A stretch of DNA of 64,000 nt, taken from assembly GCA_965249955.1 (NCBI GenBank), contig OZ252261.1, forward strand, positions 1,823,971 to 1,887,970, read 5' to 3'. This stretch comes from Bacteroidia bacterium (GTDB taxonomy: Bacteria > Bacteroidota > Bacteroidia > UBA8524). Positions within the stretch are counted from its first letter, which is position 1, and the number at the start of each line of letters is the position of its first letter. The notes under the pieces were generated by a model. The model saw nothing but the letters and a program-made list of their open reading frames with translations. It was not told where the DNA came from and made no database searches. Positions 13,701 through 61,753 of this stretch are shown in pieces. Made by a program: the position numbers and the translations under genes.

Positions 13701-16700
13701 ATGTAGAGATATGGATGATGGATCCGTTTTTACCCGGTCAGAACGGAACAATACAAGACGGTCAGTTCAACTCAAACAACCTTACAGGTGGTTCGTTATA
13801 CCTAAACTTAGGTTCGATATCAGAAGATGTATTGCGCGATACCCGTAAAAGTTACGAAAACGGTTTGCCAACCCCATCATCAACACAACAACTTATTGAT
13901 ACAACAGAGTGGGGTAGAGTACCCAATGTACCTACACTAAACAATGCGTTTGATGCCGACCCTGCTGCCCGCGATGCGCAAGACGTAGGTTTAGATGGTT
14001 TTAATGATAATGATGAGAGGGTACATTTTGCAAAGTACTTAGATGACCTTCGTACGCAATACGGAGCTACTTCGCAAGCCTATTTAAAAGCCGCCGAAGA
14101 CCCATCGGGAGATAATTACCAATTTCACAGTAGCAATAGTTTAAACAATCAAAACGCAACGGCACTTCAGCGTTACCAAAAAATAAATGGACAAGAGGGA
14201 AACTCGAAACTAGCCACTTTCCAACCCGATGGTTACCCCATTACCCGTACAAATTTGCCAGACGACGAGGATATTAACCGCGATTACAGCTTGAACATTA
14301 ACGAGCAATACTATCAGTATAAAATAGAGCTTAAACCCAACTCACTTGTAGTGGGGCAAAACTATGTTACCGATAGTGCCTCTGTTCCTGTAAAGTTAGA
14401 AAACGGAGATGTAGAAAATGTTACTTGGTATCAATTGCGTATACCCGTAAACTCTTGGAGCAAGAAAATAGGCGGTATTAGCGATTTTAAATCTATTCGT
14501 TTTGCGCGCTTATTTGTAAAAGATTTCGATCAGCCTGTTGTACTGCGTTTTGCACAAATGCAGTTGGTGCGAGCAGATTGGAGGAGATATACCAAACCTC
14601 TATCAGTTGGTGTACCGGGTGTACCGGGTTCGCCCAGTGATAATACTACTTTCTCGGTTTCAACCGTAAACATTGAGGAAAACTCTACCCGTGTTCCGGT
14701 AAACTATACCTTACCTCCGGGATTTTTCCGCGAGCAAGATGTAACTACCCCAAACAATGTGCAGCAAAACGAGCAATCGGTTTCAGTACGTTTTTGCAAC
14801 CTGCAAGAAGGCGATGCAAGGGGTATATTTAAAACCACACGTTTTGATATACGTAACTATAAGCGCTTGCGTATGTTTGTTCACGCAGAAGGCGAAAGCC
14901 AAGGCCTGCGCAATGGAGATGTAAAAGCCTTTATACGTTTAGGTACGGATTTAGAAAACAACTATTACGAGTACGAGTTACCCATGTTGGTTACTCCTGA
15001 TAGAAGTCGTGATGCACAGCAAGTATGGCCTACTGAAAACGAGATTAATATTGCCCTTGAAGAGTTTTATTTGGCCAAGCAATTGCGCCAAAATGCCAAT
15101 GCGCCACAAAACCAAGACTTTGTATACGATTTAGGTGGTGGGAAACGGATTACACTTAGAGGTGTGCCCGATTTGAGCAATGTGCGTGTAATAATGCTTG
15201 GCGTGCGCAACCCTGCTAAGTTTGATAGCCCTGCCGGAGATGATGGATTAGCAAAATGTGGTGAGGTTTGGTTTAACGAGTTACGCGTAGTAGAATTTAA
15301 CAACCAAGGTGGTGAAGCTGCTACGGCAAGGTTAGTAACCAAGTTGGCCGATTTAGGAACATTTACCGTATCGGGTAATTACCAATCTATTGGTTGGGGG
15401 GGTATTGATAAAAAACTAAACGATCGTAATCTAAACGAGATAATGCTGTACGATATGCAAACCTCGTTAGAGTTGGGTAAATTTTTTCCTGCCAAATGGG
15501 GCATAACCGTCCCCTTCTTTATGCAACGTGGCGAGCAGTTTATACGCCCCAAGTACAATCCGCTAAACCCTGATATTTTGCTTGAAACTACTGTGAAAGC
15601 AGCCCAAAACGAGCAAGAGAAACAAGAAATTTTAAACGCAGCAGAAGACTATACCGCACGAAGGAGCTTTAACTTTACCAACGTACGCAAAAACCGAATG
15701 GGTGGGGGTAAGCCTCAACTTTGGGATATTGAGAATTTTAACTTCACTTTCTCGTTTCAAGAAGTATTTAGGCGAAACCAGCAAATTGCTGCCAGTTTGC
15801 AGCGCACATGGCGCGGAAGCGGTGGGTATACTTTTGCCACAGGTGCAAAAAATATAGAGCCGTTTAAAAAGATAATTAAGCCTAAAAAATGGTTGGCTTT
15901 AGTACGTGATTTTAACTTTACACCCTATCCTCAAAGCTTCTCAGTTAGGGCTGATGCCGATAGGTATTACTCTCGCACAATAAACCGAAACAACGACGAC
16001 CCTAATACTATTGTACCCATACTGTACGATAAAAACTTTACCATGAATAGGGTGTACGATATGCGTTGGGATTTAACCAAAAGTCTTAAAGTTGACTACC
16101 AAGCAACCACCAATGCCCGTATTGACGAACCTGCAGGGCGCATTGATAAAAACGAAAACGCCAACAAGGTAGATACTATACAAAACAACTTTATTAATTT
16201 GGGGCGTACCACCAACTATACCCAAATAACCAACGTAAACTATACCCTGCCACTAAACAAAATACCTGTTTTAGATTGGGTAACAGCAAGCACACGCTAT
16301 ACTGCCAACTACGGTTGGGTTACTGCGCCACCGGCAATAAAAAGCCTAGGAAATACCATACAAAACTCACAAAACTATTCGTATACAGGGCAGTTTAATA
16401 TGATAAACTTGTACAACAAGATACCTGCCTTGCGACGTATCAATCAGAACAAGAGCAATCAGCCGCAGCCAAAACAAGAAGAAGAGGAGGAGGAAGACGA
16501 TGGCAAAGGCGGTAAAAGGAAGAAAAAGAAAAAAACCGAATCGCCACTAAAAGGTTTTGGTACTACGTTGGCAAAAACCTTGATGATGCTTAAAAACGCA
16601 TCTTTTACCACTACATCAACCAAAGGAACAACATTACCGGGCTTTAAGCATACGCCATTGTATTTGGGTAACGATGCTGAACGTAATGCTCCTGGGTGGG

Positions 16701-17908
16701 ATTTTGTATTTGGTAGTCAAGACCCTGCTGTGCGTTACCGATTGGCATCAGAAGGTTTTTTAAGTAACGATACCCTTCAAAACACTTACTTTACACAAAC
16801 CAGCCGAAAAGACTTTTCTGCCAGTGCTACACTTGAACCTTTTAAAGATTTTAGGGTAGAACTTAGGTTTGCACGAAATCAAACCGAAAACTTACAGAGT
16901 GTATTTAGGTACGATGAGGCACTAAAAGGCTATACCGATTTTGGTTTCCAACAAACGGGTAGTTTCCAAATTGGTGTTTCTACATTGCGCACAGCGTTGG
17001 AGAAAAAAGCCACCAATACCAGTTCAAAATCATTCGACCAGTTTTTAAACAATCGTTTTGTAATAGCACAGCGATATGCCGCAGAAGACCCTCGCTCGGT
17101 AGGTGCCACTCAAAGTGGTTTCCCTAAAGGCTATACCAACAAAAATCAAGATGTATTAATATCTTCATTCGTGTCGGCATACACGGGCAAAAATGCACAA
17201 GACCAAAAACTGGACTTATTCCCTAAAATCCCATTCCCTTCAATTCGTATCAATTACAACGGGTTAAGCCGTATGAAGGCGATTAAAAAATACGCTAGCA
17301 GCGTAACCCTATCATCGTTTTATAGCTCTACATACAATATACCGCAGTATATGACTATTTTGAGCCGTAACGACACTGCTGTAAGTAGCTTGGATAGTAA
17401 CTTCTTCCCTCAATACGAGATACGCTCAGTAACCATACAAGAAAGCTTTAATCCATTGATTAGGATAGATATTACCTTCCTTAATAATATTACTACCAAT
17501 GTAGAGTATAAATCGTCGCGCAATATATCGTTATCGCTATTCAACTTTATGATGGTTGAGACGCGCAATACCGAATTTGTAATTGGTTTTGGCTATCGTG
17601 CCAAAGAAATATACCTTCCGTTTAAAGTTCGCGGGCGTAAACCCTACCTGAAAAACGACTTGAATGTACGTTTCGATTTCTCTATTCGTGATGTAGTAAC
17701 TATAACCCGCAACGTACAAACTTTACAAACTATACCCACGCAAGGGCAGCGTATTTTATCTATAAAACCACAAATAGATTATATGCTGAACGAAAAACTA
17801 AACCTACGTTTCTATTACGATAGAAGAGTAACCAAACCCGCAACATCAAATGCTTTCCCTACGGCAATTACGCAAGGGGGTATATCGTTGCGTTACACAC
17901 TACAATAA
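10715..17908 (+). CDS. sprA: Type IX secretion system translocon / gliding motility protein SprA (Sov family).
   Basis: Single 2397-aa ORF with N-terminal signal peptide, very high Asn/Thr/Tyr beta-rich composition, and a C-terminal beta-barrel ending ...GGISLRYTLQ. Size and composition match Flavobacterium SprA / Porphyromonas Sov. Confidence 0.85.
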   Translation: MGSPKNVVLFVVMGVLFSILALSVSGSGNATPHYKHYTEASKTISAIDTPETDTTKLKYPIEDTENFKDKKKNPLDLQDPDNIKKEVVYDSATGNYIEKQTVGGNDYRLPQTKTMEEYLEERRQKENQSYFRQRSKAQNFVKGNSIIPKLNLGPKVLDKFFGSGLVDLRPQGSAELIFGWNFNVVRNPAFTVRQQRNGQFDFRQKIQFNLTGSIGDRFKTTWRYDTEATFDFDNQINLNWQGKEDDIIKNVQLGNVSLPLNSSLIQGGQSLFGALLQMQFGRLMVTTIFTQQRGQTTETEVTGGAQVTQFDIQADNYDVNRHYFLSHYFADNYDQWCSTSPFVSSPVLITNVQVWVTNRTGIFDNTRDVLAFMDMGERDPFNNAWNIPSGPVNPDNSSNALYNTFQFDDLARQSNEAVKHLRQDKGLDPIQDFQLLNNARQLNTNEYTVNPRLGYISLNQALNNDEILAVAFEYTLNGKSYKVGEFAREVSSPDPNKPNALMLKMLKGTTITTNLPIWDLMMKNIYSLGSFSVQKEQFKLNVIYADDPSNADLNYIPAKNEPNFIGVPLVQVLNLDKVNTQGEPTPDGVFDFIEGLTINTSNGRVIFPVREPFGDFLRSKFQDPANAEYYAYDALYDSTKWLAQQEVLKNKFFLRGSYQGSSNSEISLNAINVPQGSVRVTANGTLLTEGTDYIVDYTIGRVKILNTGILNSGAVIKVSSENNNLFSIQQKTLMGARFDYKVDKDFIIGGTVMHLYERPITPKVNIGEEPLLNTVVGIDGSIRRESRALTRWIDRLPFISTKEPSNFQFSFEGAKLFPHNPKTIGQRGTAFIDDFEASETPFDLRLGAPWYLASTPEGQPDLFPETQNSTDALGFGYKRALLSWYSLDPIFFRDQQGSNPPTPPNLAGSNNASKRSNHYTREVLQTEVFPNRQLQQGVPQNMPTFDLAYYPYKRGQYNYTVNDINADGEMKDPKSSWGGIMRRIDQNDFEAANIDYVEIWMMDPFLPGQNGTIQDGQFNSNNLTGGSLYLNLGSISEDVLRDTRKSYENGLPTPSSTQQLIDTTEWGRVPNVPTLNNAFDADPAARDAQDVGLDGFNDNDERVHFAKYLDDLRTQYGATSQAYLKAAEDPSGDNYQFHSSNSLNNQNATALQRYQKINGQEGNSKLATFQPDGYPITRTNLPDDEDINRDYSLNINEQYYQYKIELKPNSLVVGQNYVTDSASVPVKLENGDVENVTWYQLRIPVNSWSKKIGGISDFKSIRFARLFVKDFDQPVVLRFAQMQLVRADWRRYTKPLSVGVPGVPGSPSDNTTFSVSTVNIEENSTRVPVNYTLPPGFFREQDVTTPNNVQQNEQSVSVRFCNLQEGDARGIFKTTRFDIRNYKRLRMFVHAEGESQGLRNGDVKAFIRLGTDLENNYYEYELPMLVTPDRSRDAQQVWPTENEINIALEEFYLAKQLRQNANAPQNQDFVYDLGGGKRITLRGVPDLSNVRVIMLGVRNPAKFDSPAGDDGLAKCGEVWFNELRVVEFNNQGGEAATARLVTKLADLGTFTVSGNYQSIGWGGIDKKLNDRNLNEIMLYDMQTSLELGKFFPAKWGITVPFFMQRGEQFIRPKYNPLNPDILLETTVKAAQNEQEKQEILNAAEDYTARRSFNFTNVRKNRMGGGKPQLWDIENFNFTFSFQEVFRRNQQIAASLQRTWRGSGGYTFATGAKNIEPFKKIIKPKKWLALVRDFNFTPYPQSFSVRADADRYYSRTINRNNDDPNTIVPILYDKNFTMNRVYDMRWDLTKSLKVDYQATTNARIDEPAGRIDKNENANKVDTIQNNFINLGRTTNYTQITNVNYTLPLNKIPVLDWVTASTRYTANYGWVTAPPAIKSLGNTIQNSQNYSYTGQFNMINLYNKIPALRRINQNKSNQPQPKQEEEEEEDDGKGGKRKKKKKTESPLKGFGTTLAKTLMMLKNASFTTTSTKGTTLPGFKHTPLYLGNDAERNAPGWDFVFGSQDPAVRYRLASEGFLSNDTLQNTYFTQTSRKDFSASATLEPFKDFRVELRFARNQTENLQSVFRYDEALKGYTDFGFQQTGSFQIGVSTLRTALEKKATNTSSKSFDQFLNNRFVIAQRYAAEDPRSVGATQSGFPKGYTNKNQDVLISSFVSAYTGKNAQDQKLDLFPKIPFPSIRINYNGLSRMKAIKKYASSVTLSSFYSSTYNIPQYMTILSRNDTAVSSLDSNFFPQYEIRSVTIQESFNPLIRIDITFLNNITTNVEYKSSRNISLSLFNFMMVETRNTEFVIGFGYRAKEIYLPFKVRGRKPYLKNDLNVRFDFSIRDVVTITRNVQTLQTIPTQGQRILSIKPQIDYMLNEKLNLRFYYDRRVTKPATSNAFPTAITQGGISLRYTLQ

Positions 17909-46829: not shown

Positions 46830-48314
46830 TTACTCATTACAAACGCCTGCTTCCACCAAATAGTGTCGGTCTTCGCGCTCAAAATAGTAGCGCACATTAG
46901 GTTTAATTACAGAATCAGGGTGTTGCAGCCGTTTTGTTGGGTTTACACCCTCCCACAAGGTTTCATCACATATTACCATGCGCGGGTTTTGCCATGCGTT
47001 GTATACACTGCTTATCCACAAGTAATCGTGCTTATGAAACGCACCCAACAACCAATACGGCGGGGCAACAGTATAATTGTAGGGCAATACTTTTGCTACA
47101 GCTTCAATTTCTTTTACATACGGTTTTTCGGTAGCAGGCTTTGGTTTTGAAAAAATACCAACTGCATTTTGACTGAAAGAATAGTTAACCGCTGTTTGCA
47201 ATAAAACTACTTGTGCTATCACCAAAATTATTGCGACAGCTATACTAAGCACATTATTTTTTTGGAGCGAAGAAAACCAAAACCTGCCTTGTATAATGGT
47301 ATAAGCTGCAACCGCCAAAAATAACGTAAACGATAGCGAAAAACGAGGAACCCAAGTGAGCGAAAATCCGTTTTGTGGCAAATATACCAAGCCCGATACT
47401 AGGTTTACAGCCAATACAGGTAGAGACAGCAAAGCCCACCACAGCAAAAGTTTAGGTTGTATGCGTACAAACATTAGCCAAACCACTAAGGGCAATTGCA
47501 TCAGCGCAAAACTGTTTAGTATGCTGGTAATGTAGTCTTTTTTCACGCTGTTGTCCATTTCAGCCCATCGGGTAAAAGCCTTATCAAGCCGTGTTTCGGC
47601 AAAGTGGTTTTTATACTTTAGGTAGAAAATACCTAACGCAAAAATGGCTAGGTATACCACGCCCCACATAAATGATTTTTTTAGCCATTGCTTTTGGGTG
47701 ATACGCCCTGAAATCCACTCCCATGTAAAATATAAAATATGCAGGCAAGCCGCCAATACCGCCCCATCTTCTTTAACAGAAATAATAAAAAGTGCACTTA
47801 TAATACTAACCCATTTTTGTTGCCTGTGTAGCGATAATGCAAAAACAAACCCTAAAGGGATGTAAAGTATTTCTATATGAAAGCCAAACCAAGTATCATC
47901 GTACAACCAAAACGAGTATGGGCCAAGAAATAGGGCTAATAGGAAAACGGTGATGCGGGCGTTGCTTACCTTGGCTTTTTGTAAGGTTTTTAAGCCGTAT
48001 ATAAATGCCCAAACATAAAGCCCCAGTTGTGCAGTAAACAACCCGTACGCTCCCCACCACAGCACCAAAGGCCCCAATAATAGGTTAAAAAAATAGTTAT
48101 GGTATTGGGCATGGTTGCCATAGTTATTCTCAAACATAGCAGGCCGACCTTGCAACCAACTACGGCTTGTTTGTATGTGCGAGAATAAATCACTTTGGTA
48201 AGTGTGTTTATTAAACAAAGCAACTTTTGCAGCAAAAAACCAAAACAGTATAGCCAAACCAAAGCCAACTATGGCTACAGCCCAATACTGTTGTTGTTTG
48301 CTATTTATAGCCAT
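46830..48314 (-). CDS. Polytopic membrane protein, DUF2079-like (putative GT-C-fold glycosyltransferase), tandem paralog 1.
   Basis: 494 aa with ~12 TM. Shares YQSDL(F/Y).H...SR.WLQGRP.M.EN.YG.H...HNYFF.LL.GPL and (V/I)SVKEDGAV with the adjacent paralog. Confidence 0.5.
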   Translation of the reverse strand: MAINSKQQQYWAVAIVGFGLAILFWFFAAKVALFNKHTYQSDLFSHIQTSRSWLQGRPAMFENNYGNHAQYHNYFFNLLLGPLVLWWGAYGLFTAQLGLYVWAFIYGLKTLQKAKVSNARITVFLLALFLGPYSFWLYDDTWFGFHIEILYIPLGFVFALSLHRQQKWVSIISALFIISVKEDGAVLAACLHILYFTWEWISGRITQKQWLKKSFMWGVVYLAIFALGIFYLKYKNHFAETRLDKAFTRWAEMDNSVKKDYITSILNSFALMQLPLVVWLMFVRIQPKLLLWWALLSLPVLAVNLVSGLVYLPQNGFSLTWVPRFSLSFTLFLAVAAYTIIQGRFWFSSLQKNNVLSIAVAIILVIAQVVLLQTAVNYSFSQNAVGIFSKPKPATEKPYVKEIEAVAKVLPYNYTVAPPYWLLGAFHKHDYLWISSVYNAWQNPRMVICDETLWEGVNPTKRLQHPDSVIKPNVRYYFEREDRHYLVEAGVCNE

Positions 48315-49813
48315 TATTTAGGTGTTATGCCTGCTTCAATAAGGTAGTGGCGATCTTCGGGAACAAAATAATACGTTAGTTTTTCGGCTACTAACGAGTC
48401 GGGGTTTTGTATCGCCTTATGCGGATCACTCTGGCCTATATTACTCTCGTTAAAAACAATCATGCGCGGCCATATATGCGCCACAGGTATCAGGTTTGTC
48501 CAAATTAAATCTTGCTTATGAAAATAGCCAAACATAGGGTAGGGAGGGGCTATTGGGTACATGGGGGGCAGTACTTTACCCAGTTTTCGCATATCCTCCC
48601 AGTGGGGATAGTTTTGGTGGTGTGTATTTATACTAAATATTCTGCGTGAATATTTTGGGTACGAGTATTCTATTTCACTATTCAGCAAACTAATTTGCCA
48701 TTTAAAAAGCACAATACTAAAACCAATAGCAGCCACCCACAACACAAAGCTAGGGCGAAACCAAGCCCTTGAAAACATAAGCAACGAAAACGAACCCATA
48801 GCTAAAAAAAGGCTAAAGGTTAATGCAAAGCGAGGCACCCATGTAAGCGAAAAAAACTGCGCAGGGAAATACACAAAACCCGAAATTAGGTTAACAATAA
48901 TAATGGGGATAGAAAATGTCAACCACCACAACCAAGCCTTGTAGTTTAGCTGACGGATAAATAACATAAAGGCGGCTAAAGGCAATACCATCAAGCCAAA
49001 CGAAGAAAAAATACCTGTAAAGTAAGTGCGTATATTTTCTTTGCTTTGTAAACCTATTCGTTCAAACGATTCGGTAATTCTATCGTAGCCAAAATCGTTT
49101 TGAAGTTTTAGATAATACACCCCTGCTACAAATACGGCTACCCAAACACTACCCCACAAAAGCGATTGCAGCAACCAACGTTTTGTGGTGGTTTTTTTTG
49201 CAGCAAATTGCAAGGCAATAAACAATAGGTGTATACAAGCTACCATTACAGCCCCATCTTCTTTTACTGATACCATTAGTATGGCCGATAGTGCACTAAC
49301 CCAATGTTGTTTTTTGTATAGCGAAATAGCCAAAATAAAACCAAGGGGTATATAAAGCATTTCGGTATGGAAGCCATAGTGCGGATTATCGAACAGCCAA
49401 AAAGAAAAGGGCGCACAAAAGAAAGCAATATAAAAAACGGCAGTATACAAGCGATGGTTTAAGCTGGCCTCTTTTTTATAAATAGTAGGAAAGGTGTATA
49501 AAAGCGCAATAATGTACAAGGCAAATTGGGTAACAAAAAGCCCTATTACTCCCCATTGTTTTGTTAAAGGCCCCATTAACAAATCAAAAAAGTAATTGTG
49601 TATTTTGCCGTGAAAACCATAGCAGTTTTCGTGCATCAACGGTCGCCCTTGCAGCCACCCTCGGCTTATTTCAAGGTGCGTATACAGGTCTGATTGGTAA
49701 TCGGGGCGGTTAAAAATTGCAATCTTGGCTGCATAGTACCAAATTAATATTCCTAGCGAGGCAAAGAATATAGCTAGGCCTAAAAAATCACGTTTTTTAA
49801 AAAGCTCTATCAC
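48314..49813 (-). CDS. Polytopic membrane protein, DUF2079-like, tandem paralog 2.
   Basis: 499 aa. Colinear similarity with 46830-48314 along the whole length. Its stop codon overlaps the start of paralog 1. Confidence 0.5.
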   Translation of the reverse strand: MIELFKKRDFLGLAIFFASLGILIWYYAAKIAIFNRPDYQSDLYTHLEISRGWLQGRPLMHENCYGFHGKIHNYFFDLLMGPLTKQWGVIGLFVTQFALYIIALLYTFPTIYKKEASLNHRLYTAVFYIAFFCAPFSFWLFDNPHYGFHTEMLYIPLGFILAISLYKKQHWVSALSAILMVSVKEDGAVMVACIHLLFIALQFAAKKTTTKRWLLQSLLWGSVWVAVFVAGVYYLKLQNDFGYDRITESFERIGLQSKENIRTYFTGIFSSFGLMVLPLAAFMLFIRQLNYKAWLWWLTFSIPIIIVNLISGFVYFPAQFFSLTWVPRFALTFSLFLAMGSFSLLMFSRAWFRPSFVLWVAAIGFSIVLFKWQISLLNSEIEYSYPKYSRRIFSINTHHQNYPHWEDMRKLGKVLPPMYPIAPPYPMFGYFHKQDLIWTNLIPVAHIWPRMIVFNESNIGQSDPHKAIQNPDSLVAEKLTYYFVPEDRHYLIEAGITPK

Positions 49814-51204
49814 TTATTGTTTTCTACCGTTTGTTTACTGATTAAAACATATTGCCACACCAAAAATGCGGCGGCCATTGGCAATAGCCATATCATACGC
49901 GCCATATACCTGTCTACCACGCCCGAAAATGATGCACAAACCACACCGTTTACTACGCAGCCTATAAACACTACTATTGCAAACGCAAAAGGGCTGTTAT
50001 AAGCAGCGTTGCGATAAAATATTATCCCCAAAACCAACAATAGCAATAGCGAAGCGTATACCACCCAACGCTGTATGGTAGACTGTGTTTCAAAATGCAA
50101 CGTTTCTGTATACTGTACGGCATTTTGGTATTGGGACATTTCGCGCCCAAAAAAATCTTTAATACCACTATACACCGGCGAGTTTTCGGCCATTGGGGTT
50201 AGGTAACCCAAATCAAAAAGCCCTAGTTGCCTCCAACTGTCGGAGGCACATTTTTCAATCAAAGCATTGCGAGATGGGCCATAAGCCAAAATACCTTTTA
50301 CGGTTTTGCCGTAGGCAGCATCTTTTTCAATCCAACATTCGCCCCAGCCCTTTGCTACACAAGCACTATCGTATAGTGGGCTGTTGTTAAACTCCCACAA
50401 AAAATCTACCGCCAACGGCGATAAGTTATCTTTTGCCGCACATAAATCGGCAGGGGCATCAGGGCATTTATGGTCGAGGTACACTTTAGCTGCCCCTGTT
50501 TCTATACAGCGCGCCACCAAAAACACATTCCCTGTACGCGACGGCTGAAAACCGACACCCAGCCAGTAATTGAACAGGCAAATAACCAACCACGAGGCTA
50601 TGCTCCAAAATACCACTCGTTTGTGGGTTTTGTTTCTATCAGCAAAAAATGGTTTTTTCTTAAAGATAAGTCGCAGTACAAACAGGCCAACGGCCAGTAA
50701 ACTAAAGATAAGCAGGTGCGAGCTGTGCACAGATATTGAAAACAGCAACACCACTACCAACCAAAAACGGTGTTTTGATGGAATACTTTTGCCTGCAACC
50801 AAAGTAGCAAAAGCCAACAGTGCAATAGGCGAAAATACATCGGCCATTATTTGGCTATGGTTGTGCGATAAGCCTGTTAAAAAGCCCAAACCTGCCAATA
50901 AAAGACAAGCAGGAATAAAGGAGTTTTTTAGTTTTAAAATATACCGCACTGCCATGCGTGCAGCATACAACAGTATTAACGATTGTGCTAAGAGAACCAG
51001 CCAAAGGCTAAACCACAAACTGCTGTGGCGCACAAACCAACTGTAAAAATAGGGACGGTCGACAGGTACGTAGTGAATAAAACCGGCGACTATGTATGTG
51101 CCCGAATCAGAATAGAGCATGGGATAGCCGTTGAGCAGGGCAGGAAAATTAATTGCTGCCAGCGCGACTATAAAAGCCAATATTTTTAGCACCCATTGCC
51201 TCAC
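49810..51204 (-). CDS. Polytopic membrane protein with a Cys-rich extracytoplasmic domain (464 aa). Start uncertain.
   Basis: N-terminal block of ~7 TM. A ~150-aa loop carries 7 Cys (..ARCIETG..DHKCPDAPADLCAAKD..DSACVAKGWGECWIEKD..EKCASD..). C-terminal TMs. The 4-nt overlap with the upstream paralog suggests an operon. Confidence 0.45.
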   Translation of the reverse strand: MRQWVLKILAFIVALAAINFPALLNGYPMLYSDSGTYIVAGFIHYVPVDRPYFYSWFVRHSSLWFSLWLVLLAQSLILLYAARMAVRYILKLKNSFIPACLLLAGLGFLTGLSHNHSQIMADVFSPIALLAFATLVAGKSIPSKHRFWLVVVLLFSISVHSSHLLIFSLLAVGLFVLRLIFKKKPFFADRNKTHKRVVFWSIASWLVICLFNYWLGVGFQPSRTGNVFLVARCIETGAAKVYLDHKCPDAPADLCAAKDNLSPLAVDFLWEFNNSPLYDSACVAKGWGECWIEKDAAYGKTVKGILAYGPSRNALIEKCASDSWRQLGLFDLGYLTPMAENSPVYSGIKDFFGREMSQYQNAVQYTETLHFETQSTIQRWVVYASLLLLLVLGIIFYRNAAYNSPFAFAIVVFIGCVVNGVVCASFSGVVDRYMARMIWLLPMAAAFLVWQYVLISKQTVENNK

Positions 51205-52995
51205 GCTGCCAAATATACGGCTATAAGTGCATTTGGGGTATTTTTAAGTATTTTTGGCGCAATAACTTCTGTTTTGGCGCAACACCTAAAAAAATACATT
51301 AAGTGGTATATAGCTGCATTATTGTTTGCAGCTACCTATGCCTTGTATACCGACGGCATTGTGATGCAGGCTAACCGCATGATTATAGGTAGGTTGGATA
51401 TGCAAAGCGATGTGCCTGTTTTTTACAACAACATTTATTTGTTTGAAAAGAAAGTTCAGGCAGGAGAAAACCCGCTGAATAATGATATGGAAATGTACCC
51501 TGCGGGGTTTAACATGGCCATGAATTCGCACAACTTTGCTATGGGTATTTTTTGCCTTCCCTTTAAAAATAATATGCAGGGGCTAAACATGGGTTTGTGG
51601 CTCTCGTTTATACTTTCAGGCTTAGGTGCTGCTTTTTTGTGCTACCGTTTTGTACCTAATTATTGGGCGGCGGTATTGGTAGGGTTTATTTTCGCCTTTT
51701 CGCCTTGGAAAATGCTAAAACTGCAAGATCATCATTGGTTTGCACTTACGGCCACTATACCGTTTTATATATATCATTTTATCGATATTTTCGATTTTAA
51801 AAGGCGACGGTATTTACCCTCTATCAGCAGTTACAAAAAAATAATTTATTGTTTTTTGTTGGGCGCGGTTACTGCCTTATCAGAGTATTACCTTACTTTT
51901 TTCCTTATTTATTTTTCGTTGTTTTATGTACTGATAAAACAATACGTACAGCCTTGGCGTATCAACTTTAAAAAACCAAAAACATGGGGCATTATAGCTT
52001 TTGCGGTAGTGGGTATAAGTATTTTGGTGAGTGTGCTTGATGGTGCTGGCTGGGACAATAAAGGAGCTTTTTTTTGGGGAGGAGATTTGGCTGCATATTT
52101 TCTTCCCGTATACCAAACTTGGGTAAAGGATTTTATAGGTGTTTTTGGTTTTGAAATCCCTGCCTATCAAGAAAACTTTTTCTTTCTTGGGTTTTCATTT
52201 ATTGCCTTTACAGTGTTGGTTTTCATCAAAGCTAAAAAAAGTAAAATTACACCACCTGAAGATATAAAAGCTTTTGCATGGCTGGCTTTGTTGTTTGTGT
52301 TGTTCAGTTTGCCTGTACTAAAAGTATTGGGTCATTTTTTGTTTTATCTGCCCACAGCCATTTTTCATTACATACCGTTTTTTAATAATGTGCGCGTTAT
52401 TACCCGCATATTTATATTGTTTAGTCTACTGTTTCCTATTGTGGTAATGTGGTTTTATCACAACAGCGTGCAATGGAAGTTTAAGAATATTTTACCCGTA
52501 ATAGTATTGGTAGTGTTGTGGTTTGAGTTTACTCCGCCTAAATACGATGTGATTGACAGCCAAACAACCCCGACAGAAATAGCCCAACTGCACAGAATAA
52601 AAGGCAATGTGGTATTGCCCATACCCGCAGGTTTGCGCGATGGTTTCACCCAAATAGGTCTTAATAATTCGGATATGCTGTTTTATCAAACCCTGTTTGA
52701 TAAAAAAATGATAGGAGGCTATACTGCTAGGCTAACAGATGATGTACGACAGTTGTACCTATCAGACAGTGTGATGAAAAACATACTTATCCTTTCAGAA
52801 AATCCCAATGCAGTTGTTGCATTACCAACGCCCCAACAAACTGAACAATTTTTCACCACTTTTGAGGTTGATATGGTGTGTATAGCCCCCACCTATAAAG
52901 GCACAAAGGCTGAGGAGTATGCGCGCTACATAGCGGCACAAAGGGGATTAAACATTATACAGGGCAAAAAGTATCTTATTTTAACAAAAAATTAA
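51196..52995 (+). CDS. Large polytopic membrane protein (599 aa by the ORF track). Start uncertain, because the annotated start overlaps the divergent upstream gene.
   Basis: At least 12 hydrophobic helices in the first 450 aa, then a ~150-aa soluble C-terminal domain. GT-C-like overall topology. Confidence 0.45.
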   Translation: MPHAAKYTAISAFGVFLSIFGAITSVLAQHLKKYIKWYIAALLFAATYALYTDGIVMQANRMIIGRLDMQSDVPVFYNNIYLFEKKVQAGENPLNNDMEMYPAGFNMAMNSHNFAMGIFCLPFKNNMQGLNMGLWLSFILSGLGAAFLCYRFVPNYWAAVLVGFIFAFSPWKMLKLQDHHWFALTATIPFYIYHFIDIFDFKRRRYLPSISSYKKIIYCFLLGAVTALSEYYLTFFLIYFSLFYVLIKQYVQPWRINFKKPKTWGIIAFAVVGISILVSVLDGAGWDNKGAFFWGGDLAAYFLPVYQTWVKDFIGVFGFEIPAYQENFFFLGFSFIAFTVLVFIKAKKSKITPPEDIKAFAWLALLFVLFSLPVLKVLGHFLFYLPTAIFHYIPFFNNVRVITRIFILFSLLFPIVVMWFYHNSVQWKFKNILPVIVLVVLWFEFTPPKYDVIDSQTTPTEIAQLHRIKGNVVLPIPAGLRDGFTQIGLNNSDMLFYQTLFDKKMIGGYTARLTDDVRQLYLSDSVMKNILILSENPNAVVALPTPQQTEQFFTTFEVDMVCIAPTYKGTKAEEYARYIAAQRGLNIIQGKKYLILTKN

Positions 52996-54351
52996 GTGCG
53001 TAATGTAACATCATATAGTTTTTGGGCTTTTTGTGCCTTAGTAGTGCTTTACGTAGTACTGTTTTTTAACGGGCGTGAGTGGATGAAGCACGATGCTCTT
53101 CGCCACGATATGACAGCGTATTACGCCTACTTGCCTGCTGTTTTTGTTGATCAAGAGATTGAACTAAACAGCGAGGAAACCCGGAAAAACACAATGTATT
53201 GGTGGAGTGTAGAAGCTCCCGCACGCGAAGGCCGCATCATTAGGATGAGTATGGGTGTTAGCTACCTGCATTTGCCCTTTTTTCTGCTGGCACATATTAC
53301 TGCTAAACCGTTGGGACACGAAGCCAATGGGTTTAATGTCCATTATTACTTTTTTATACTGATAGGCAGTGTGTTTTATGCCCTTGCAGGGTTTTGGTTG
53401 CTACGCAAACTGCTATTACTTTTTTTTGGCGATGGAGTTACCGCTATTACTCTAATACTTATAGCTACTGCTACCAACTTGGTATATTATGCCCTTAGCG
53501 AAGGAGCTATGAGCCACGCATACAACTTTTTTTTAGTGATAGCTTTGCTATACCTCACTGTAAAATGGCATACAAAGCCTAAGTGGGGCAATACTATTTT
53601 ATTGGGCTTGGTAATGGGCATTATTACCCTTGCACGCCCTCTAAACTTATTGCTGGCTTTAGTGCCTGTGTTATACAATGTATATTCAAAAGAAACGCTT
53701 ATGCAAAAGCTACAGCTAATCCAAAAAAACTGGGGTAAGGTGTTAATAGCGGTTGTGTTTGCTTTTTTAGCTTTGTTGCCCCAATTGCTCTACTGGCATT
53801 ATATGAGCGGTGAGTGGACGTATTATACCTACGGCGATGAAGGCTTTTTCTTTACCCACCCGCATATTATTGATGGGTTGTTTAGCTACCGCAAAGGTTG
53901 GTTTGTATACACCCCCATTATGGCAGTAGCTGCGGTAGGTTTAGTGATGATTTGGAAACAAGCCAAACAATGGGCATTGCCTTTGTTTATAGTACTACCC
54001 GTATTTGTTTGGTGTGTTTACAGTTGGTGGACATGGTGGTATGGCGGTAGTTTTGGCTCGCGACCGATGATAGATATTTACGGGCTAATGGCCATTCCTT
54101 TGGCGGCAATACTTACTTGGGCACTAAAAAGAAAATGGACGGGTGCAACGTTTTTGCTATTGGGTGCATTCTTTATATACCTTAACATATACCAAACCTA
54201 CCAGTACAAAAAGGCAATGATACACTGGGACAGTATGACCAAAGAGGCCTACTGGGCGGTTTTTTTAAAGAAAAATTACCCTGATAACTACGACAATTTG
54301 ATAAAAGCCCCCGATTACGAAAAAGCAAAAAAAGGTGAAGATGAATACTAA
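52996..54351 (+). CDS. Polytopic membrane protein with a GT-C-like first-loop motif (451 aa).
   Basis: The start is adjacent to the previous stop. Acidic/aromatic loop motif ALRHDMTAYYAYLP follows TM1, as in the DE..Y motif of GT-C enzymes such as PMT/ArnT. Around 11 TM helices. Confidence 0.45.
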   Translation: MRNVTSYSFWAFCALVVLYVVLFFNGREWMKHDALRHDMTAYYAYLPAVFVDQEIELNSEETRKNTMYWWSVEAPAREGRIIRMSMGVSYLHLPFFLLAHITAKPLGHEANGFNVHYYFFILIGSVFYALAGFWLLRKLLLLFFGDGVTAITLILIATATNLVYYALSEGAMSHAYNFFLVIALLYLTVKWHTKPKWGNTILLGLVMGIITLARPLNLLLALVPVLYNVYSKETLMQKLQLIQKNWGKVLIAVVFAFLALLPQLLYWHYMSGEWTYYTYGDEGFFFTHPHIIDGLFSYRKGWFVYTPIMAVAAVGLVMIWKQAKQWALPLFIVLPVFVWCVYSWWTWWYGGSFGSRPMIDIYGLMAIPLAAILTWALKRKWTGATFLLLGAFFIYLNIYQTYQYKKAMIHWDSMTKEAYWAVFLKKNYPDNYDNLIKAPDYEKAKKGEDEY

Positions 54352-55516
54352 TACAGTCAAAAAAAGCATACTGTTTATAGTGCTTGCCCTTAGTTTTTAT
54401 ACATCACAAGCTATTGATGGGCGTTTGCTGATAAGCACTACACCCAATTTTTTTGATAGGTGGTATAAAAGCTATAACGAAATACCCATGGCGCATATAC
54501 CCCAAACACAAACCGTATACAAACGGCAGGTATTTTATATGTTGCCCGTTATCACTGGTTTTTCGGCTACGGAGAATAGACCTAATATTAGTTATGATGT
54601 AAACATTAGCCTTAACGGAAAATCGGTATACAATAAAAAAGCAGTTACAGGATTAACCAAAATTGTAAACGATACTAGTGCTGTTTTTTTGTGCGAAACA
54701 GTGCTTAATTACGAGTTTTTAGAAAAAAGTCCCGACGGCACATACACTATAACTGTAGTATTACACGATAATATAAGCAAAAACACTAAACAACTAACCG
54801 CAGAGATTACTGTAACGGCGTATAAGTTTAACGAACGAAAATTTACCAATGCCGATAGTTTTTTTGTATGGCAAAACTACTACTACGAGGGTATTGAGCC
54901 TGATAGAGAGATTGACGGATTGATGTTTTTCTCTTTCCCCCAAATGCAAACCAATGCTGAGAAAACCCTTGCATTGTTGGCTTATTTTGAAGACCTGTTT
55001 AAAGGCAAAACCTATTTGCTGAAAGAACTGGAAAACATTTTCCCCTCACGCAATGCTGACGAAAGGCTAACCATGATACACGTACTAAACTTGGTAAGCT
55101 ATATGCCCCAAAGCCTACAAAATAAATTTACTACCGAAGAAAAGAAATTTTATGCTGATCTAAAGGGATTTGGGCTACCTGTAATACCTGAAGAAACAGT
55201 AAACAACCATTTTTTGTTGAACATACTTTGGTCTAAATTTTTTGCAACGGGCAGTTACAACTATGCTAAAAAAATTGCTGAAACCTTTGAACTGGCCAAA
55301 TACAAAGGCGCTCTTATCACCTTTAACGAGTCAGAACAAACGGAAGCCGACAAGCAAGCCGCATTTTTAGAAACTGTATACCAAAAAAACATAGAAGATA
55401 TGTTGAAACGTTTGCCCAATCATCCATTGTTCAACGGATATTGCCTGTATATGATAGATAGGGGCGATGTGAGCGAATTGGTAAAAAAAGAATTAGTATC
55501 AGTTGTGGTGCGGTAA
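54335..55516 (+). CDS. Hypothetical secreted protein (393 aa), translationally coupled by a 17-nt overlap to the upstream membrane protein.
   Basis: Signal peptide MKMNTNTVKKSILFIVLALSFYTSQA. No family recognised. Confidence 0.4.
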   Translation: MKMNTNTVKKSILFIVLALSFYTSQAIDGRLLISTTPNFFDRWYKSYNEIPMAHIPQTQTVYKRQVFYMLPVITGFSATENRPNISYDVNISLNGKSVYNKKAVTGLTKIVNDTSAVFLCETVLNYEFLEKSPDGTYTITVVLHDNISKNTKQLTAEITVTAYKFNERKFTNADSFFVWQNYYYEGIEPDREIDGLMFFSFPQMQTNAEKTLALLAYFEDLFKGKTYLLKELENIFPSRNADERLTMIHVLNLVSYMPQSLQNKFTTEEKKFYADLKGFGLPVIPEETVNNHFLLNILWSKFFATGSYNYAKKIAETFELAKYKGALITFNESEQTEADKQAAFLETVYQKNIEDMLKRLPNHPLFNGYCLYMIDRGDVSELVKKELVSVVVR

Positions 55517-55591
55517 GCAACCCCAACCATCATTTGCCCATCTAATCAAAATATATTTCGGTTATTTGCACTACAACTACCCTGTATACTT

Positions 55592-56770
55592 TTGATGAGT
55601 GAAGAAAATAACAACTTTTGGCAGCGTTTGTGGGCTTTTTTAACCCCTGCACGTATTGGCTTGCTATATATAGTAGCCTTTGTGGCCGCATCAATAGCCC
55701 AATACTACAAACCCCAGTCGGGCGAGTATACCAATTATAATAACTACATCATTTTTAAGCAGGCGTTTTACCACCTGCTACACGGTAAAGACCTTTACAT
55801 ACTGCACCCTACCGAGTGTTGGGATTTGTTTAAGTACAGTCCCGCCTTTGCCTTGTTTATGGGCGTTTTTGCTTGGATGCCCGATATTGTAGGGCTATCG
55901 CTATGGAATTTACTAAACGCAATGGTGTTGTGGTACGCATTTACTCAATTGCCACAAGCCAATAGCAAACAAAAGGCCTTTATGTTGCTGTTTGTATTTT
56001 TAGAATTGTTAACCAGTATACAAAACTCACAAAGCAACGGACTTATAGCAGGGCTTTTGTTATTAGCTTTTGTACGATTAGAAAAAGGCGATGTAGTTTG
56101 GTCGCCGTTGTATATCATGCTAACCGTATTTATAAAAATATTTGGTGTAGTAGCCTTTGCACTGTTTTTGCTGTATCCCAAAAAGCTAAAATTTATGACC
56201 TATAGCATACTTTGGGGCGTAGTGCTTTTAGTATTGCCCATAGTGGTTACAGGAGGCGACGGCTTATTAATGCAATACCAAAGCTGGTGGAATATGCTAA
56301 AAGAAGACCATTCTGCATCTGTTGGGCTATCCGTTATGGGGTGGCTTGAGACTTGGTTTGGCTACAACGGCAGCAAAACATTTATCACCCTATTGGGGGT
56401 AGTATTGTTTTGTCTTCCACTACTAAAAATGAAATACTACGGCGATTATATGTACCGTGTGCTGTTGTTGGCATCGGTATTGTTGTGGGTAATCATCTTT
56501 AACCATAAGGCTGAATCGCCCACCTTTATTATTGCTATTTTAGGCGTAGCCCTTTGGTTTTTTATGCAGAAAAGAGAAACGTGGAAAATTGTAGTAGTGG
56601 TATTGGCGTTTGTATTTACCTCGCTATCGCCCACCGATTTGTTTCCGCACTTTGTGCGTAAAGAATTAGTAGAACCTTATGTGCTAAAAGCTGTGCCTTG
56701 TATATTGGTTTGGTGCATTATTGTTTACGAAATGTTATTTAAAAAATATGAGTTGTATAAAAGTGAGTAG
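55592..56770 (+). CDS. DUF2029 / glycosyltransferase-family-87-like (PimE-type) polyprenol-phosphate-sugar-dependent membrane glycosyltransferase candidate.
   Basis: 392 aa with ~10 TM. Size and topology match GT87/DUF2029 proteins. Short loops lead to a cytoplasmic C-terminal tail. Confidence 0.5.
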   Translation: MMSEENNNFWQRLWAFLTPARIGLLYIVAFVAASIAQYYKPQSGEYTNYNNYIIFKQAFYHLLHGKDLYILHPTECWDLFKYSPAFALFMGVFAWMPDIVGLSLWNLLNAMVLWYAFTQLPQANSKQKAFMLLFVFLELLTSIQNSQSNGLIAGLLLLAFVRLEKGDVVWSPLYIMLTVFIKIFGVVAFALFLLYPKKLKFMTYSILWGVVLLVLPIVVTGGDGLLMQYQSWWNMLKEDHSASVGLSVMGWLETWFGYNGSKTFITLLGVVLFCLPLLKMKYYGDYMYRVLLLASVLLWVIIFNHKAESPTFIIAILGVALWFFMQKRETWKIVVVVLAFVFTSLSPTDLFPHFVRKELVEPYVLKAVPCILVWCIIVYEMLFKKYELYKSE

Positions 56771-57869
56771 AATAATTTTAACCTTAACATTAACCTTTTT
56801 AATGGTAGGGGCGCAAGCCCAAACCCTTAAAGAAAAAGAATACAAAAGTACAAGCCTAGTAGCCGAAGGCGAAAGCTATAACAACGGCAAAAGGCATGGA
56901 TACTGGATATTGTATGCTTCTAACGGACAAAAAGAACAAGAAGGCAAGTACCAAGATGGTTTGAAACAAGGTGCATGGAAACGTTACGACCCAACTACTA
57001 AAAACATTATTGAAGATGTAATTTATAAAAACGATACTGCCCACGGTGTATACAAAAGCTATTATTCTGACGGCAAAAAAGCCGAAGAAGGTACGTTTGA
57101 TATGGGCTACCAAATAGGTGTGTGGAAACAATACTATAACACTGCAAACAATTACCTTGCATCAGTAGGGGAGTTTAAAAACGGTGAGAAAGAAGGCAAG
57201 TGGACGTATTATTTTGATGCCGAAGGACTGCAGGTGTACGAAACAGGGTTTTATGTAAAAGGGCAGCGGAACGGCCAATGGAAAATGTATTTTCAAGGGG
57301 CAGAAAAAGCCCGACAAGCCGAAGGCAATTATAAAAAAGGAATGAAGGATGGCGTGTGGGTGTTTTACAACCAGCAACCCAACACCCTTTTATCGCGTAT
57401 ACTTTATACGGCTAATTTAGAGCAAGATACTTTTACTACGTATTACCCCAGCGGTAAAGTACACGAGCGCGGAGCTTATGTAAACGGCCAATACCATGGC
57501 TTATACGAGGAACTGTATGAAAACGGAGAGCGAAAAACCGAAGGAGCTTTTACTTATGGCGAAAAAACCGACGAATGGAAGTTTTTTTATGAAACAGGAA
57601 TAATGAAAATGCTGGGTAGCTATTATAAAAATAAAGCTAACGGTATGTGGAAATATTACCGTGATAATGGTTCGCTAGAAAGGGAGCAGGAGTATAAAAA
57701 CAATGTGCCTGACGGCAGGTACTTGGAGTATTTTTTTAACGGAAAGATTTACAAAAAAGGTCAGATGACCAATTTTATGAAGCAAGGTAAGTGGGAAGAA
57801 TACGATATAACGGGTAACTTAATGAAAGTTGAAATTTGGGAAGATAACCGATTGATTGATAGTCAATAG
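56748..57869 (+). CDS. Secreted MORN-variant repeat protein (YwqK-like repeat family), second copy in the window.
   Basis: Signal peptide, then more than 10 repeats of G.W..Y..NG....EG.Y..G...G (GKRHGYWILYASNGQKEQEGKYQDGLKQGAW, GEKEGKWTYYFDAEGLQVYETGFYVKGQRNGQW). Confidence 0.55.
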   Translation: MSCIKVSRIILTLTLTFLMVGAQAQTLKEKEYKSTSLVAEGESYNNGKRHGYWILYASNGQKEQEGKYQDGLKQGAWKRYDPTTKNIIEDVIYKNDTAHGVYKSYYSDGKKAEEGTFDMGYQIGVWKQYYNTANNYLASVGEFKNGEKEGKWTYYFDAEGLQVYETGFYVKGQRNGQWKMYFQGAEKARQAEGNYKKGMKDGVWVFYNQQPNTLLSRILYTANLEQDTFTTYYPSGKVHERGAYVNGQYHGLYEELYENGERKTEGAFTYGEKTDEWKFFYETGIMKMLGSYYKNKANGMWKYYRDNGSLEREQEYKNNVPDGRYLEYFFNGKIYKKGQMTNFMKQGKWEEYDITGNLMKVEIWEDNRLIDSQ

Positions 57870-57871
57870 GA

Positions 57872-60121
57872 TTACACCCCAAGCCAATATACCAACTTTA
57901 TTACCACACCTCTATCTCGCACCCTAAAATCGGGAAGGGCACGTCCTGCATTATTTATGGGGTTATAATTATCTCCCCATACCACAAATAAATCGCTCAT
58001 GGGGGCAAAACGCCATTGCAAACGGGTGTTAATATTTACATTATCTATTTGGGTATTGTATTGCACAAAAGTGGTAAAAAACAAGCTGCGGCTAAAGGTA
58101 AACTCCATGCGAGGGCCTATAAGCGTTAAGTTGGTATAACCGTAGGGTTGTGGCAATTTTATCTCGTTGGTTTGAAAATTTAAGCTAAAATTACCCCAAG
58201 GCTGTGCCCGGTAATACAAATTGCAGCCGTAGGCTAGTTGTTGGCCGTTAAAAAACTCACCATACGATACAAAAGCACTCCAATTAAACAGCTTACGACG
58301 GTTTGAGGTATAACTGGCGCTAAAATTATTATAGTGGTAGTTGCCCACAGGCAAAGGCACGTTACCCGTCCCCGTTATGTCAATAGGAAAGTATAAATAG
58401 GTTTGGTTTATCTTATATTCAATACCTATTTCAGCCGTGTTTAAAAAAATTATTTGCAGATAAGGGTCGTAAATAGCATCGTTCGAGAATAGCGAAGAAT
58501 CGGCATACCAACTGGCATAAATACCGGGTTTTATAGCATATATCTTACTATTTTTGGGGTAAAAGGCATGGGTTATTTCGGGCTCTAACCGCCAATAAGT
58601 CATAGGCACCTCAATATTGCGGGCACCATCGTATACCTTTTGGCGGGGCACAAAACCTACATCTGCATGGTAGTTGTTGCCTACATACTCGTGGTTCCAC
58701 ATTATAAACCAGCGGGCGGTGCTGTATCGCAACCACGATGCGTGTGCATAAGCGTTTTTAGGCTGGTTGGGCGAAAACGAATGGTGAAAGAAAAACTTAC
58801 CCTGCCACTTATTATCGGCACTTGCCAAATTATAATCCAAACCCACAATGCGATTATAGGCATTGGCTGTGCTATCAGCTCCATGCAGGTTTTGTTTGTT
58901 TACCACTATAGCAGCAACATTGCTGCGTGCAAACACCTGCCTTTGTACGGCGGCTACCGTAAAATTTTCAGGGTTGGCAACTATGCCGCCTTCGTTATAG
59001 GCTTTGGTTTGAATATTCATAAGCCCCATACGCCAGTTTTTGTCTAGTTTTCCACTAAGCCGTGCGCCTGCTATTATGGGTATGGTAACACTACTACCAT
59101 TTTTTAGCCCGATACGGCGCGAGAAAAACGGACGTATTTTACTAAACCCGAAACTGCCAAACAGGTCAGAATTTTCAAGAAAAAATTGGCGTTGTTCAGG
59201 AAAAAACAAGCTAAAACGGGTGAGGTTAGTTACCTGCCTGTCTACATCAACTTGAGAAAAATCGGGATTTACTGTTAAATCAAGATTTAGCGATGGGGTT
59301 ACAGATACTTTGGCATCAAAGCCTGCATCAACCTTGTGTTGCCCTGCTGTTTGTGCAGCATAGTTTTGGCTAAATCTACTAATGGCATAGGGTATAACTG
59401 AGATATTAAGCCCTGCTTTGGGCGAGGGAGCATCCCACAACAGTTTGCCGGTATGGGCAAGTGATGCTACGTCAAAATTTCTGGGGACTTTGCTCCAACT
59501 GCTGTTTTCATTAATTTTTTGATTGTTTCTTGAAAAGTTTATGCCCCACTGCATTACCCCCTCTTTGTACCTCAGTGTTTTAAAAGGGATTTTAAATTCA
59601 GTTATCCAGTACCCCTTGTGCCGTGTAACTTCAGAGAACCATTTGTTATCCCAATTTATAGTTGTGCCAAAGCTGCCACCGTTTTGTATTAGCCCTTCTT
59701 GCTGTGCCCCGTAGGGGTTTACGGCAAAAGTAACTCCGTTGGTTTTATCGTTAAAAGGGTCTATATAAATAGCAAAAGCATCGTTGTTGGTATATGTAAA
59801 ATCGCGCTTTAATGATGATACAACATAGTTTCCGTCAAACCCATCGTAGCAAATAGCAGCCACATAAATATTGTGTTGGTCATAGGTCATCATCACTTCG
59901 GTTTTAGTGGTAGCCAAAGCAGTATCGTAGGGATATTGTTGCCAAAAATTATTGGCTTTTTCAGCTTTTTGCCAAATAGCCTCGTTTAGTACACCATCAA
60001 TTTTTATCGATTCTTGGGTTTTGCTTAAAAAGTAGCTGCGTGCGCTATCGGGCTGGGTTTGTGCCTGCGCTGCACCTGCAATGAATAGTAAAAGAAAGAA
60101 AAAGAATTTATACCTACCCAC
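57872..60121 (-). CDS. Secreted CBM9-like plus DUF5916-like large beta-rich protein, probably outer-membrane associated.
   Basis: Signal peptide ending AQAQ. N-terminal IKIDGVLNEAIWQKAEKANNFWQQYPYD...YVAAICYD matches the CBM9-like domain found at the start of the DUF5916 architecture. The ~600-aa C-terminal region is rich in alternating aromatic residues. 749 aa. Confidence 0.5.
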   Translation of the reverse strand: MGRYKFFFFLLLFIAGAAQAQTQPDSARSYFLSKTQESIKIDGVLNEAIWQKAEKANNFWQQYPYDTALATTKTEVMMTYDQHNIYVAAICYDGFDGNYVVSSLKRDFTYTNNDAFAIYIDPFNDKTNGVTFAVNPYGAQQEGLIQNGGSFGTTINWDNKWFSEVTRHKGYWITEFKIPFKTLRYKEGVMQWGINFSRNNQKINENSSWSKVPRNFDVASLAHTGKLLWDAPSPKAGLNISVIPYAISRFSQNYAAQTAGQHKVDAGFDAKVSVTPSLNLDLTVNPDFSQVDVDRQVTNLTRFSLFFPEQRQFFLENSDLFGSFGFSKIRPFFSRRIGLKNGSSVTIPIIAGARLSGKLDKNWRMGLMNIQTKAYNEGGIVANPENFTVAAVQRQVFARSNVAAIVVNKQNLHGADSTANAYNRIVGLDYNLASADNKWQGKFFFHHSFSPNQPKNAYAHASWLRYSTARWFIMWNHEYVGNNYHADVGFVPRQKVYDGARNIEVPMTYWRLEPEITHAFYPKNSKIYAIKPGIYASWYADSSLFSNDAIYDPYLQIIFLNTAEIGIEYKINQTYLYFPIDITGTGNVPLPVGNYHYNNFSASYTSNRRKLFNWSAFVSYGEFFNGQQLAYGCNLYYRAQPWGNFSLNFQTNEIKLPQPYGYTNLTLIGPRMEFTFSRSLFFTTFVQYNTQIDNVNINTRLQWRFAPMSDLFVVWGDNYNPINNAGRALPDFRVRDRGVVIKLVYWLGV

Positions 60122-60171: not shown

Positions 60172-60915
60172 CTAAGCAAATAAATTGTACTTCAAAATGC
60201 ACCAAATAGCCCTAAAACCATCGCGCCAGCCAATTTTTTTACCTTCTTCGTAGGTACGGCCATAATATGATATACCTACCTCGTAAATACGTATTTTGGG
60301 TATACGTGCAATTTTAGCAGTAACCTCAGGTTCAAAACCAAAGCGTTTTTCTTTTAAGTCTAACCCTTGCACCACCTCGCGGCGAAACATTTTGTAGCAA
60401 GTTTCCATATCTGTTAGGTTCAAATTGGTAAACATATTGCTAAGTAAGGTTAAAAACTTGTTTCCTATGGTGTGCCAAAAGAAAAGAATGCGGTGTGGGT
60501 TTCCGCCCATAAAACGGCTGCCGTATACTACGTCGGCAAAGCCATCGGTAATGGGTTGCAATAAAATATTAAACTCTTGTGGGTTATACTCAAGGTCGGC
60601 ATCCTGTATCACCACTATATCGCCTGTGGCTACTTTTATACCTGTGTGCAGGGCTGCGCCTTTACCTTTGTTTACCTCGTGCTGAAAAAAAACAATATTT
60701 AAGTCTTTGTTTTCGGCCATATAGCGTTCAACGGCTTCAACGGTATCGTCTTTGCTGCAATCGTTCACTATTATCACCTCTTTTTCCATACCACCGTCAA
60801 GCACCACATTTTTCACCTTATCCAGTATCAGGTGTATGGTTTTTCCTTCATTATAGGCCGGAATAACTATCGAAAGTGTTTTGAACATCCCAAAAAATTT
60901 GTGCAAAGAAAACAA
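60172..60915 (-). CDS. GT2-family polyprenol-phosphate sugar synthase (DPM1/GtrB/ArnC-like).
   Basis: [10 protein letters not shown] start of the GT-A fold. DCSKDDT and QDADLEY (DxD) motifs. ~245 aa with no large C-terminal membrane domain, as in dolichol/undecaprenol-phosphate mannose or glucose synthases. Confidence 0.7.
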
Positions 60916-60997: not shown

Positions 60998-61753
60998 ATG
61001 AGAAACTTAGTATTAGTCCTTTTGCTGTTAATTAGCAGCCTAGCATTTTCACAAAAAACAACCGCAACAAAAACAGCAGGTGGCACTTCGCCAACGGTTG
61101 AAACGTATAAAAAGGCGTATTACATGGCGCTGCGTTGTGGAGATGCACAAGCGGCTGTTAATAGCTTGTACCTTATAATAGCCGAAGAGGGCGACTTAAG
61201 TCCATACAAAGACAGTCTTTTATTGATGTACTTTGATATGGCATCGTTTGTTCAGTGCGAGCGAGTGGCTACTGAATTAGTGAAAACGTATGCTGACTCT
61301 ATTGAGAAAGGAAAAAAACTTACGCAGCTTGAAATTTTGGCTATATCGCAAGCATCATTAGGTAAGGTAAAAGAAGCCATAGAATCTTTTGATAAATTGC
61401 TTTCAAAAACCAACGAAATGTACCATGCGTACCGCTTGGCCGAGTTACAGTATACCTACAAACGTGTTGGTGAAGCATTACAAAGTACCATGCGTGCCGA
61501 AAACTTGACCAATAGTATGAAAGCCCCAGTGAAGCTGGAGGTTGAAAAAAATAAAGTGCAAGAAGTGAAATTGGAGGCTGCTGTGCTAAACCTTAAAGGC
61601 TATATTTTATTGGAAGAATACCCCGATAAAAAAGCCGAAGCCATAGCCGCTTTTACCAAAGCCCTTGAAATACAACCCGATTTTATATTGGCAAAAAATA
61701 ATTTGGCCTATGCTACAGGAAGCAAACCCCAAGGTACGCCAGAAAACAAATAA
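60998..61753 (+). CDS. Hypothetical secreted helical (TPR-like) protein, 251 aa.
   Basis: Signal peptide MRNLVLVLLLLISSLAFSQ. Helical, repeat-like composition. Confidence 0.4.
   Translation: MRNLVLVLLLLISSLAFSQKTTATKTAGGTSPTVETYKKAYYMALRCGDAQAAVNSLYLIIAEEGDLSPYKDSLLLMYFDMASFVQCERVATELVKTYADSIEKGKKLTQLEILAISQASLGKVKEAIESFDKLLSKTNEMYHAYRLAELQYTYKRVGEALQSTMRAENLTNSMKAPVKLEVEKNKVQEVKLEAAVLNLKGYILLEEYPDKKAEAIAAFTKALEIQPDFILAKNNLAYATGSKPQGTPENK

Follow-up and report, generated by a model that had tools for sequence, protein, structure and literature searches.

Why would a Bacteroidia bacterium keep a row of large multi-pass membrane proteins close to an enzyme that resembles polyprenol-phosphate sugar synthases? 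The original prediction, made for a 64-kb window (the whole stretch of DNA that was analysed), was that the row consists of GT-C-like proteins and that it forms, with the synthase, a dedicated extracytoplasmic glycosylation pathway. The observation is confirmed by the present analysis and the interpretation is supported by it: each of the three grounds on which it could have failed (fold, acidic loop residues, co-occurrence with the synthase) gave results that speak for it. We place the probability of a glycosylation pathway that runs in several steps outside the cytoplasm and depends on polyprenyl-phosphate sugars at about 0.6.

Gene organization of the block

The open reading frames predicted for positions 46830–56770 are present and encode six polytopic membrane proteins (A, B, C, D, E and G) and one secreted protein (F). 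The block had been announced as containing seven polytopic proteins, but the description that accompanied this title had F right. In a 19-residue Kyte-Doolittle scan, the raw counts of which include overlapping windows, each of the six shows roughly 7–10 transmembrane (TM) segments.

The genes are arranged in two divergent units with a short intergenic region (51205–51273) between them. On the minus strand, C (49810–51204, 464 aa) is followed by B (48314–49813, 499 aa) and A (46830–48314, 494 aa), the last gene of this operon, with C overlapping B by GTGA and B overlapping A by TAATG. C starts with a GTG at 51204, at the position where its homologs have their Met. The plus-strand unit consists of D (51274–52995, about 573 aa), E (52996–54351, 451 aa), F (54335–55516, 393 aa), G (55592–56770, 392 aa) and H (56721–57869), which closes it. 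The D frame is listed from 51196 and overlaps the C start, but as the homologs of D begin aligning at residue ~28–39 of this frame, its start should lie near 51274. E starts directly after the D stop codon, and the start of F overlaps the E stop codon, which bears out the translational coupling of F to E. The sole hydrophobic segment of F is its signal-peptide-like N-terminus; Pfam and PDB searches with this protein gave no match.

Fold and family assignment of the membrane proteins

A and B are indeed paralogs, with 43% identity in the alignment, but their description as DUF2079-like requires a correction. Neither protein matches DUF2079 in Pfam at E ≤ 0.1, 11 of the 27 members of the A/B family do, and the B homolog in two related loci (L001/L002) carries a precomputed match. 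Such a pattern points to only a distant relationship.

As judged from their models, A and C have the GT-C fold. ArnT is a top structural match for both, and the oligosaccharyltransferases (OSTs) AglB, PglB and STT3 also stand high in the ranking; transporters had a probability below 0.15 in Foldseek, where the C model was the only query. C belongs to an unannotated GT-C family. C247 and C255 of its large Cys-containing loop, a feature noticed earlier, are invariant, and these cysteines fit a periplasmic placement of the loop. G, which had been called DUF2029/GT87-like, belongs to GT87 (Pfam 3.4e-15; score 56.9 bits, cutoff 25), and D67-L-Y and D78 in its first loop are invariant across six homologs.

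For D and E themselves no Pfam GT-C model passed, and we infer their GT-C status from family members that match PMT_2, which makes it weaker than that of the other four membrane proteins. The HDMTAYYAY motif of E is real, as D38, Y42, Y43 and Y45 (D38-x3-YY-x-Y) are invariant in 48 homologs. Homologs of E number more than 1183 and occur widely in Bacteroidota; a few are named GT39 or ArnT-like. PMT_2 is matched by 4/48 family members and Glyco_transf_22 by 1/48, and the match of E itself to the NCBIfam putative glycosyltransferase LA_3751/LA_3752 is weak (3.9e-8, below cutoff). E is a PMT_2/ArnT-like GT-C candidate. D carries a C-terminal soluble domain and finds 805 representative clusters at E ≤ 1e-3. 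Precomputed DUF6311 matches occur on its homologs and one family member (P0319, 3.4e-17 to D) clears the PMT_2 cutoff (29.2 versus 26.1 bits), so that D is a probable GT-C related to DUF6311 and PMT_2.

All five families (A/B, C, D, E and G) keep an Asp directly behind TM1 with no or almost no exceptions: D42 in A, D33 in C, D46 in D (near-invariant), D38 in E and D67 in G. Comparison of the five families with hhalign gave no significant similarity, and profile searches of PDB sequences for the A/B, C, D and E families gave no match.

The PMT_2 matches in the E and D families allow for a reading in which E, D and perhaps C move mannose or another hexose from a Pren-P-sugar directly onto Ser/Thr residues of secreted or periplasmic proteins, in the manner of PMT/Ppm1 in Actinobacteria and eukaryotes, or serve as the missing transferase or ligase of Bacteroidota general O-glycosylation, while the other GT-Cs extend the glycan. 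The high ranking of the OSTs and the presence of the secreted F and H in the operon fit this reading, and according to a 2025 review the OTase, ligase and core-glycan flippase of the Bacteroidota system remain to be discovered (PMC12871550). However, in the model given by that review the glycan is built on Und-P in the cytoplasm from nucleotide sugars and not from Pren-P-monosaccharides (PMC12871550). Furthermore, unlike the enzymes of PMT O-mannosylation (GT39; Pmt1-Pmt2, Pmt4), E and D themselves fail the PMT_2 model and have no MIR domain. Members of the E and J families are found widely across the phylum, which also fits, but the full block is limited to a small number of uncultured Bacteroidia and only 27 proteins make up the A/B family, whereas general O-glycosylation is phylum-wide; the lack of Bacteroides, Porphyromonas or Tannerella genomes among the best 80 of 435 C-family loci is weak evidence in the same direction. 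We regard protein O-glycosylation as rather unlikely.

The candidate donor synthase and its surroundings

J (60172–60915, minus strand; probably starting with the ATG at 60888, which gives 238 aa) is a soluble GT2 protein (Glycos_transf_2, Pfam 2.7e-35) with no TM helix in the Kyte-Doolittle scan. The PDB search ranks Pyrococcus DPMS (1.1e-17 over the full catalytic domain, with the DAD motif aligned), three ArnC and three GtrB entries as its seven best matches, in agreement with the original assignment as a polyprenol-phosphate sugar synthase; its best NCBIfam matches (AglJ, PgfS, ArnC and PpgS) are likewise Pren-P-sugar synthases, all below cutoffs. As a candidate polyprenyl-phosphate hexose synthase, J probably makes the lipid-linked sugar donor for the GT-Cs of the block.

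The MORN and CBM9/DUF5916 proteins expected between the block and J were both recovered in Pfam. The secreted H carries MORN_2 repeats (1e-13; a match to the adhesin-like NCBIfam LIC20035 is below cutoff) and is conserved in all full-block loci. The secreted I (57872–60121, minus strand, 749 aa) combines CBM9_1 (2.1e-8) with DUF5916 (4.9e-23) and is a possible glycan-binding envelope component. It is downstream of J and co-directional with it; the two also adjoin in L008 and L011, and I is missing from L012. A gene divergent from J encodes a TPR-like secreted protein with weak TPR matches (60998–61753, plus strand), which is also kept next to J in L008 and L012 and the membership of which is uncertain. 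Elsewhere in the window are SprA (10715–17908) and three cargo-type Por_Secre_tail proteins. These T9SS components had been noted correctly, but the suggested link to the pathway has no support beyond the shared window.

With ArnC among the best solved relatives of J and some E homologs annotated as ArnT-like, one could also imagine that the locus groups ArnT-like enzymes which act independently on lipid A, LPS core or O-antigen, each adding a single sugar at its own position as the Gtr seroconversion enzymes and ArnT do, and that they are clustered for co-regulation and not because they form a sequential pathway. Even close relatives differ in whether D and I are present (D is missing from L008 and L012), as would be the case for dispensable decorations. 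However, there is only one donor synthase for six transferases, and the 42–64 kb part of the window showed no genes for LPS, O-antigen or Ara4N precursors. The tight coupling within C-B-A and D-E-F and the recurrent E-C adjacency in distant genomes suggest joint action, and we find independent modification unlikely.

Conservation of the locus

The whole block is found again in five other contigs at 57–98% identity, and its arrangement is therefore not due to chance. J accompanies it in every related locus the flank of which reaches that far (L008, L011 and L012); the block is likewise conserved in L001/L002, and D-E-F stay together as a module even in L006, where the block is split. Full-block synteny is confined to close relatives, and part of it may be phylogenetic inertia.

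Among the best 80 of 435 C-family loci, which were scanned for neighbours, E-like GT-Cs and J-like GT2s are the commonest, in 15 loci each; the other recurrent ones are housekeeping genes. The J orthologs that adjoin C-like and E-like genes are 62–98% identical; among them are those of eight of these 80 loci, all more distant, and that of L007. At 62–73% identity they are contiguous with C/E arrays in which C is only 28–39% identical.

Could some of the GT-C-fold proteins instead be polymerases, ligases or oligosaccharyltransferases acting on Pren-PP-oligosaccharides, or non-catalytic subunits similar to PIG-U/GAB1, with J belonging to an unrelated pathway and being a neighbour by descent? J does share a separate transcription unit with I, and in other genomes C-family genes mostly occur singly, with no J in the vicinity. 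On the other hand, every family retains an invariant or near-invariant first-loop Asp along with other polar residues, which speaks for catalytic activity. In L007, L015 and L041, C/E genes and a J ortholog follow one another directly in the same orientation, and the surroundings of the block contain no Wzx, no initiating phosphoglycosyltransferase and no cytoplasmic GT-A/GT-B set. This explanation appears very unlikely.

The complexity of the locus had been called unusual, but it is not unique: comparable arrays of a GT2 and 4–6 GT-Cs are present in other Bacteroidota. In L007, L013, L016, L018, L023 and L041, the J ortholog is contiguous with E-like, C-like and further 8–10-TM proteins, some of them PMT_2, and in L007 six polytopic proteins surround the GT2; L023 belongs to Acidiluteibacter ferrifornacis. 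Unlike our locus, these arrays have no DUF2079-like A/B pair, GT87 protein G, F, H or I. We found no papers on DUF2079 or DUF6311 and nothing describing GT2 plus multi-GT-C arrays in the literature on Bacteroidota GT-C systems and O-glycosylation.

Known systems and the proposed pathway

The best reading by analogy is that the pathway works like Gtr systems or mycobacterial lipomannan synthesis. In mycobacteria, one PPM synthase supplies PimE, MptA, MptB and MptC, and the catalytic Ppm1 subunit can be TM-less (PMC3485146), as is J. The PIM/lipomannan/LAM system thus also combines one GT2 donor synthase with several GT-C families, including GT87 (PimE and MptC, compared with G here), on one glycan outside the cytoplasm. 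However, it belongs to another phylum, whereas the host of this locus has a diderm envelope; its genes are scattered, whereas the six GT-Cs here are contiguous; and A/B, C, D and E have no detectable sequence similarity to the solved mycobacterial GT-Cs. A Ppm2-like partner was not found at the locus.

The three-component logic of periplasmic glycosylation (PMC11127046), exemplified by GtrA/GtrB/Gtr* and C. youngae ORF15/14/12, similarly joins a Pren-P-sugar synthase and a GT-C acting on a periplasmic glycan, and GtrB is among the solved relatives of J. There, each locus encodes a single GT-C and its own flippase (GtrA/SMR or MATE). The present locus has six GT-Cs, and neither the vicinity of the block nor the related arrays showed a flippase of the GtrA/SMR/MATE type. 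J also has no counterpart of the membrane anchors of GtrB (C-terminal TM helices) and ArnC. ArnC/ArnT is likewise a GT2 Und-P-sugar synthase with a GT-C, and the two are top matches of J (by sequence) and of A/C (by structure), respectively. However, the arnA/B/D precursor genes and the ArnE/F flippase are not nearby, and J is far below the ArnC equivalog cutoff (66 versus 529 bits).

In the pathway that we propose, the DPM1/ArnC/GtrB-like J would load polyprenyl (undecaprenyl) phosphate with a hexose, most likely mannose or glucose, at the cytoplasmic face of the membrane, and the lipid-linked sugar would then be flipped across. At the periplasmic face it would be used by six GT-C-fold enzymes of five sequence families, each employing its conserved first-loop Asp, which would work together on one envelope glycoconjugate, attaching sugars that differ in linkage or position. 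The proposal is weakened by the position of J outside the transcription units of the GT-Cs, by its missing membrane anchor and by the many C-family genes that have no J close by. The translationally coupled C-B-A and D-E-F modules may work as complexes, and D and I would be accessory. The association of only one donor synthase with six transferases from different families speaks for a product that is homoglycan-like or decorated repeatedly, similar to mycobacterial lipomannan, and not for six unrelated modifications. A conserved block of six GT-Cs beside a probable donor synthase points to a so far unstudied route for assembling or modifying an envelope glycan outside of the cytoplasm.

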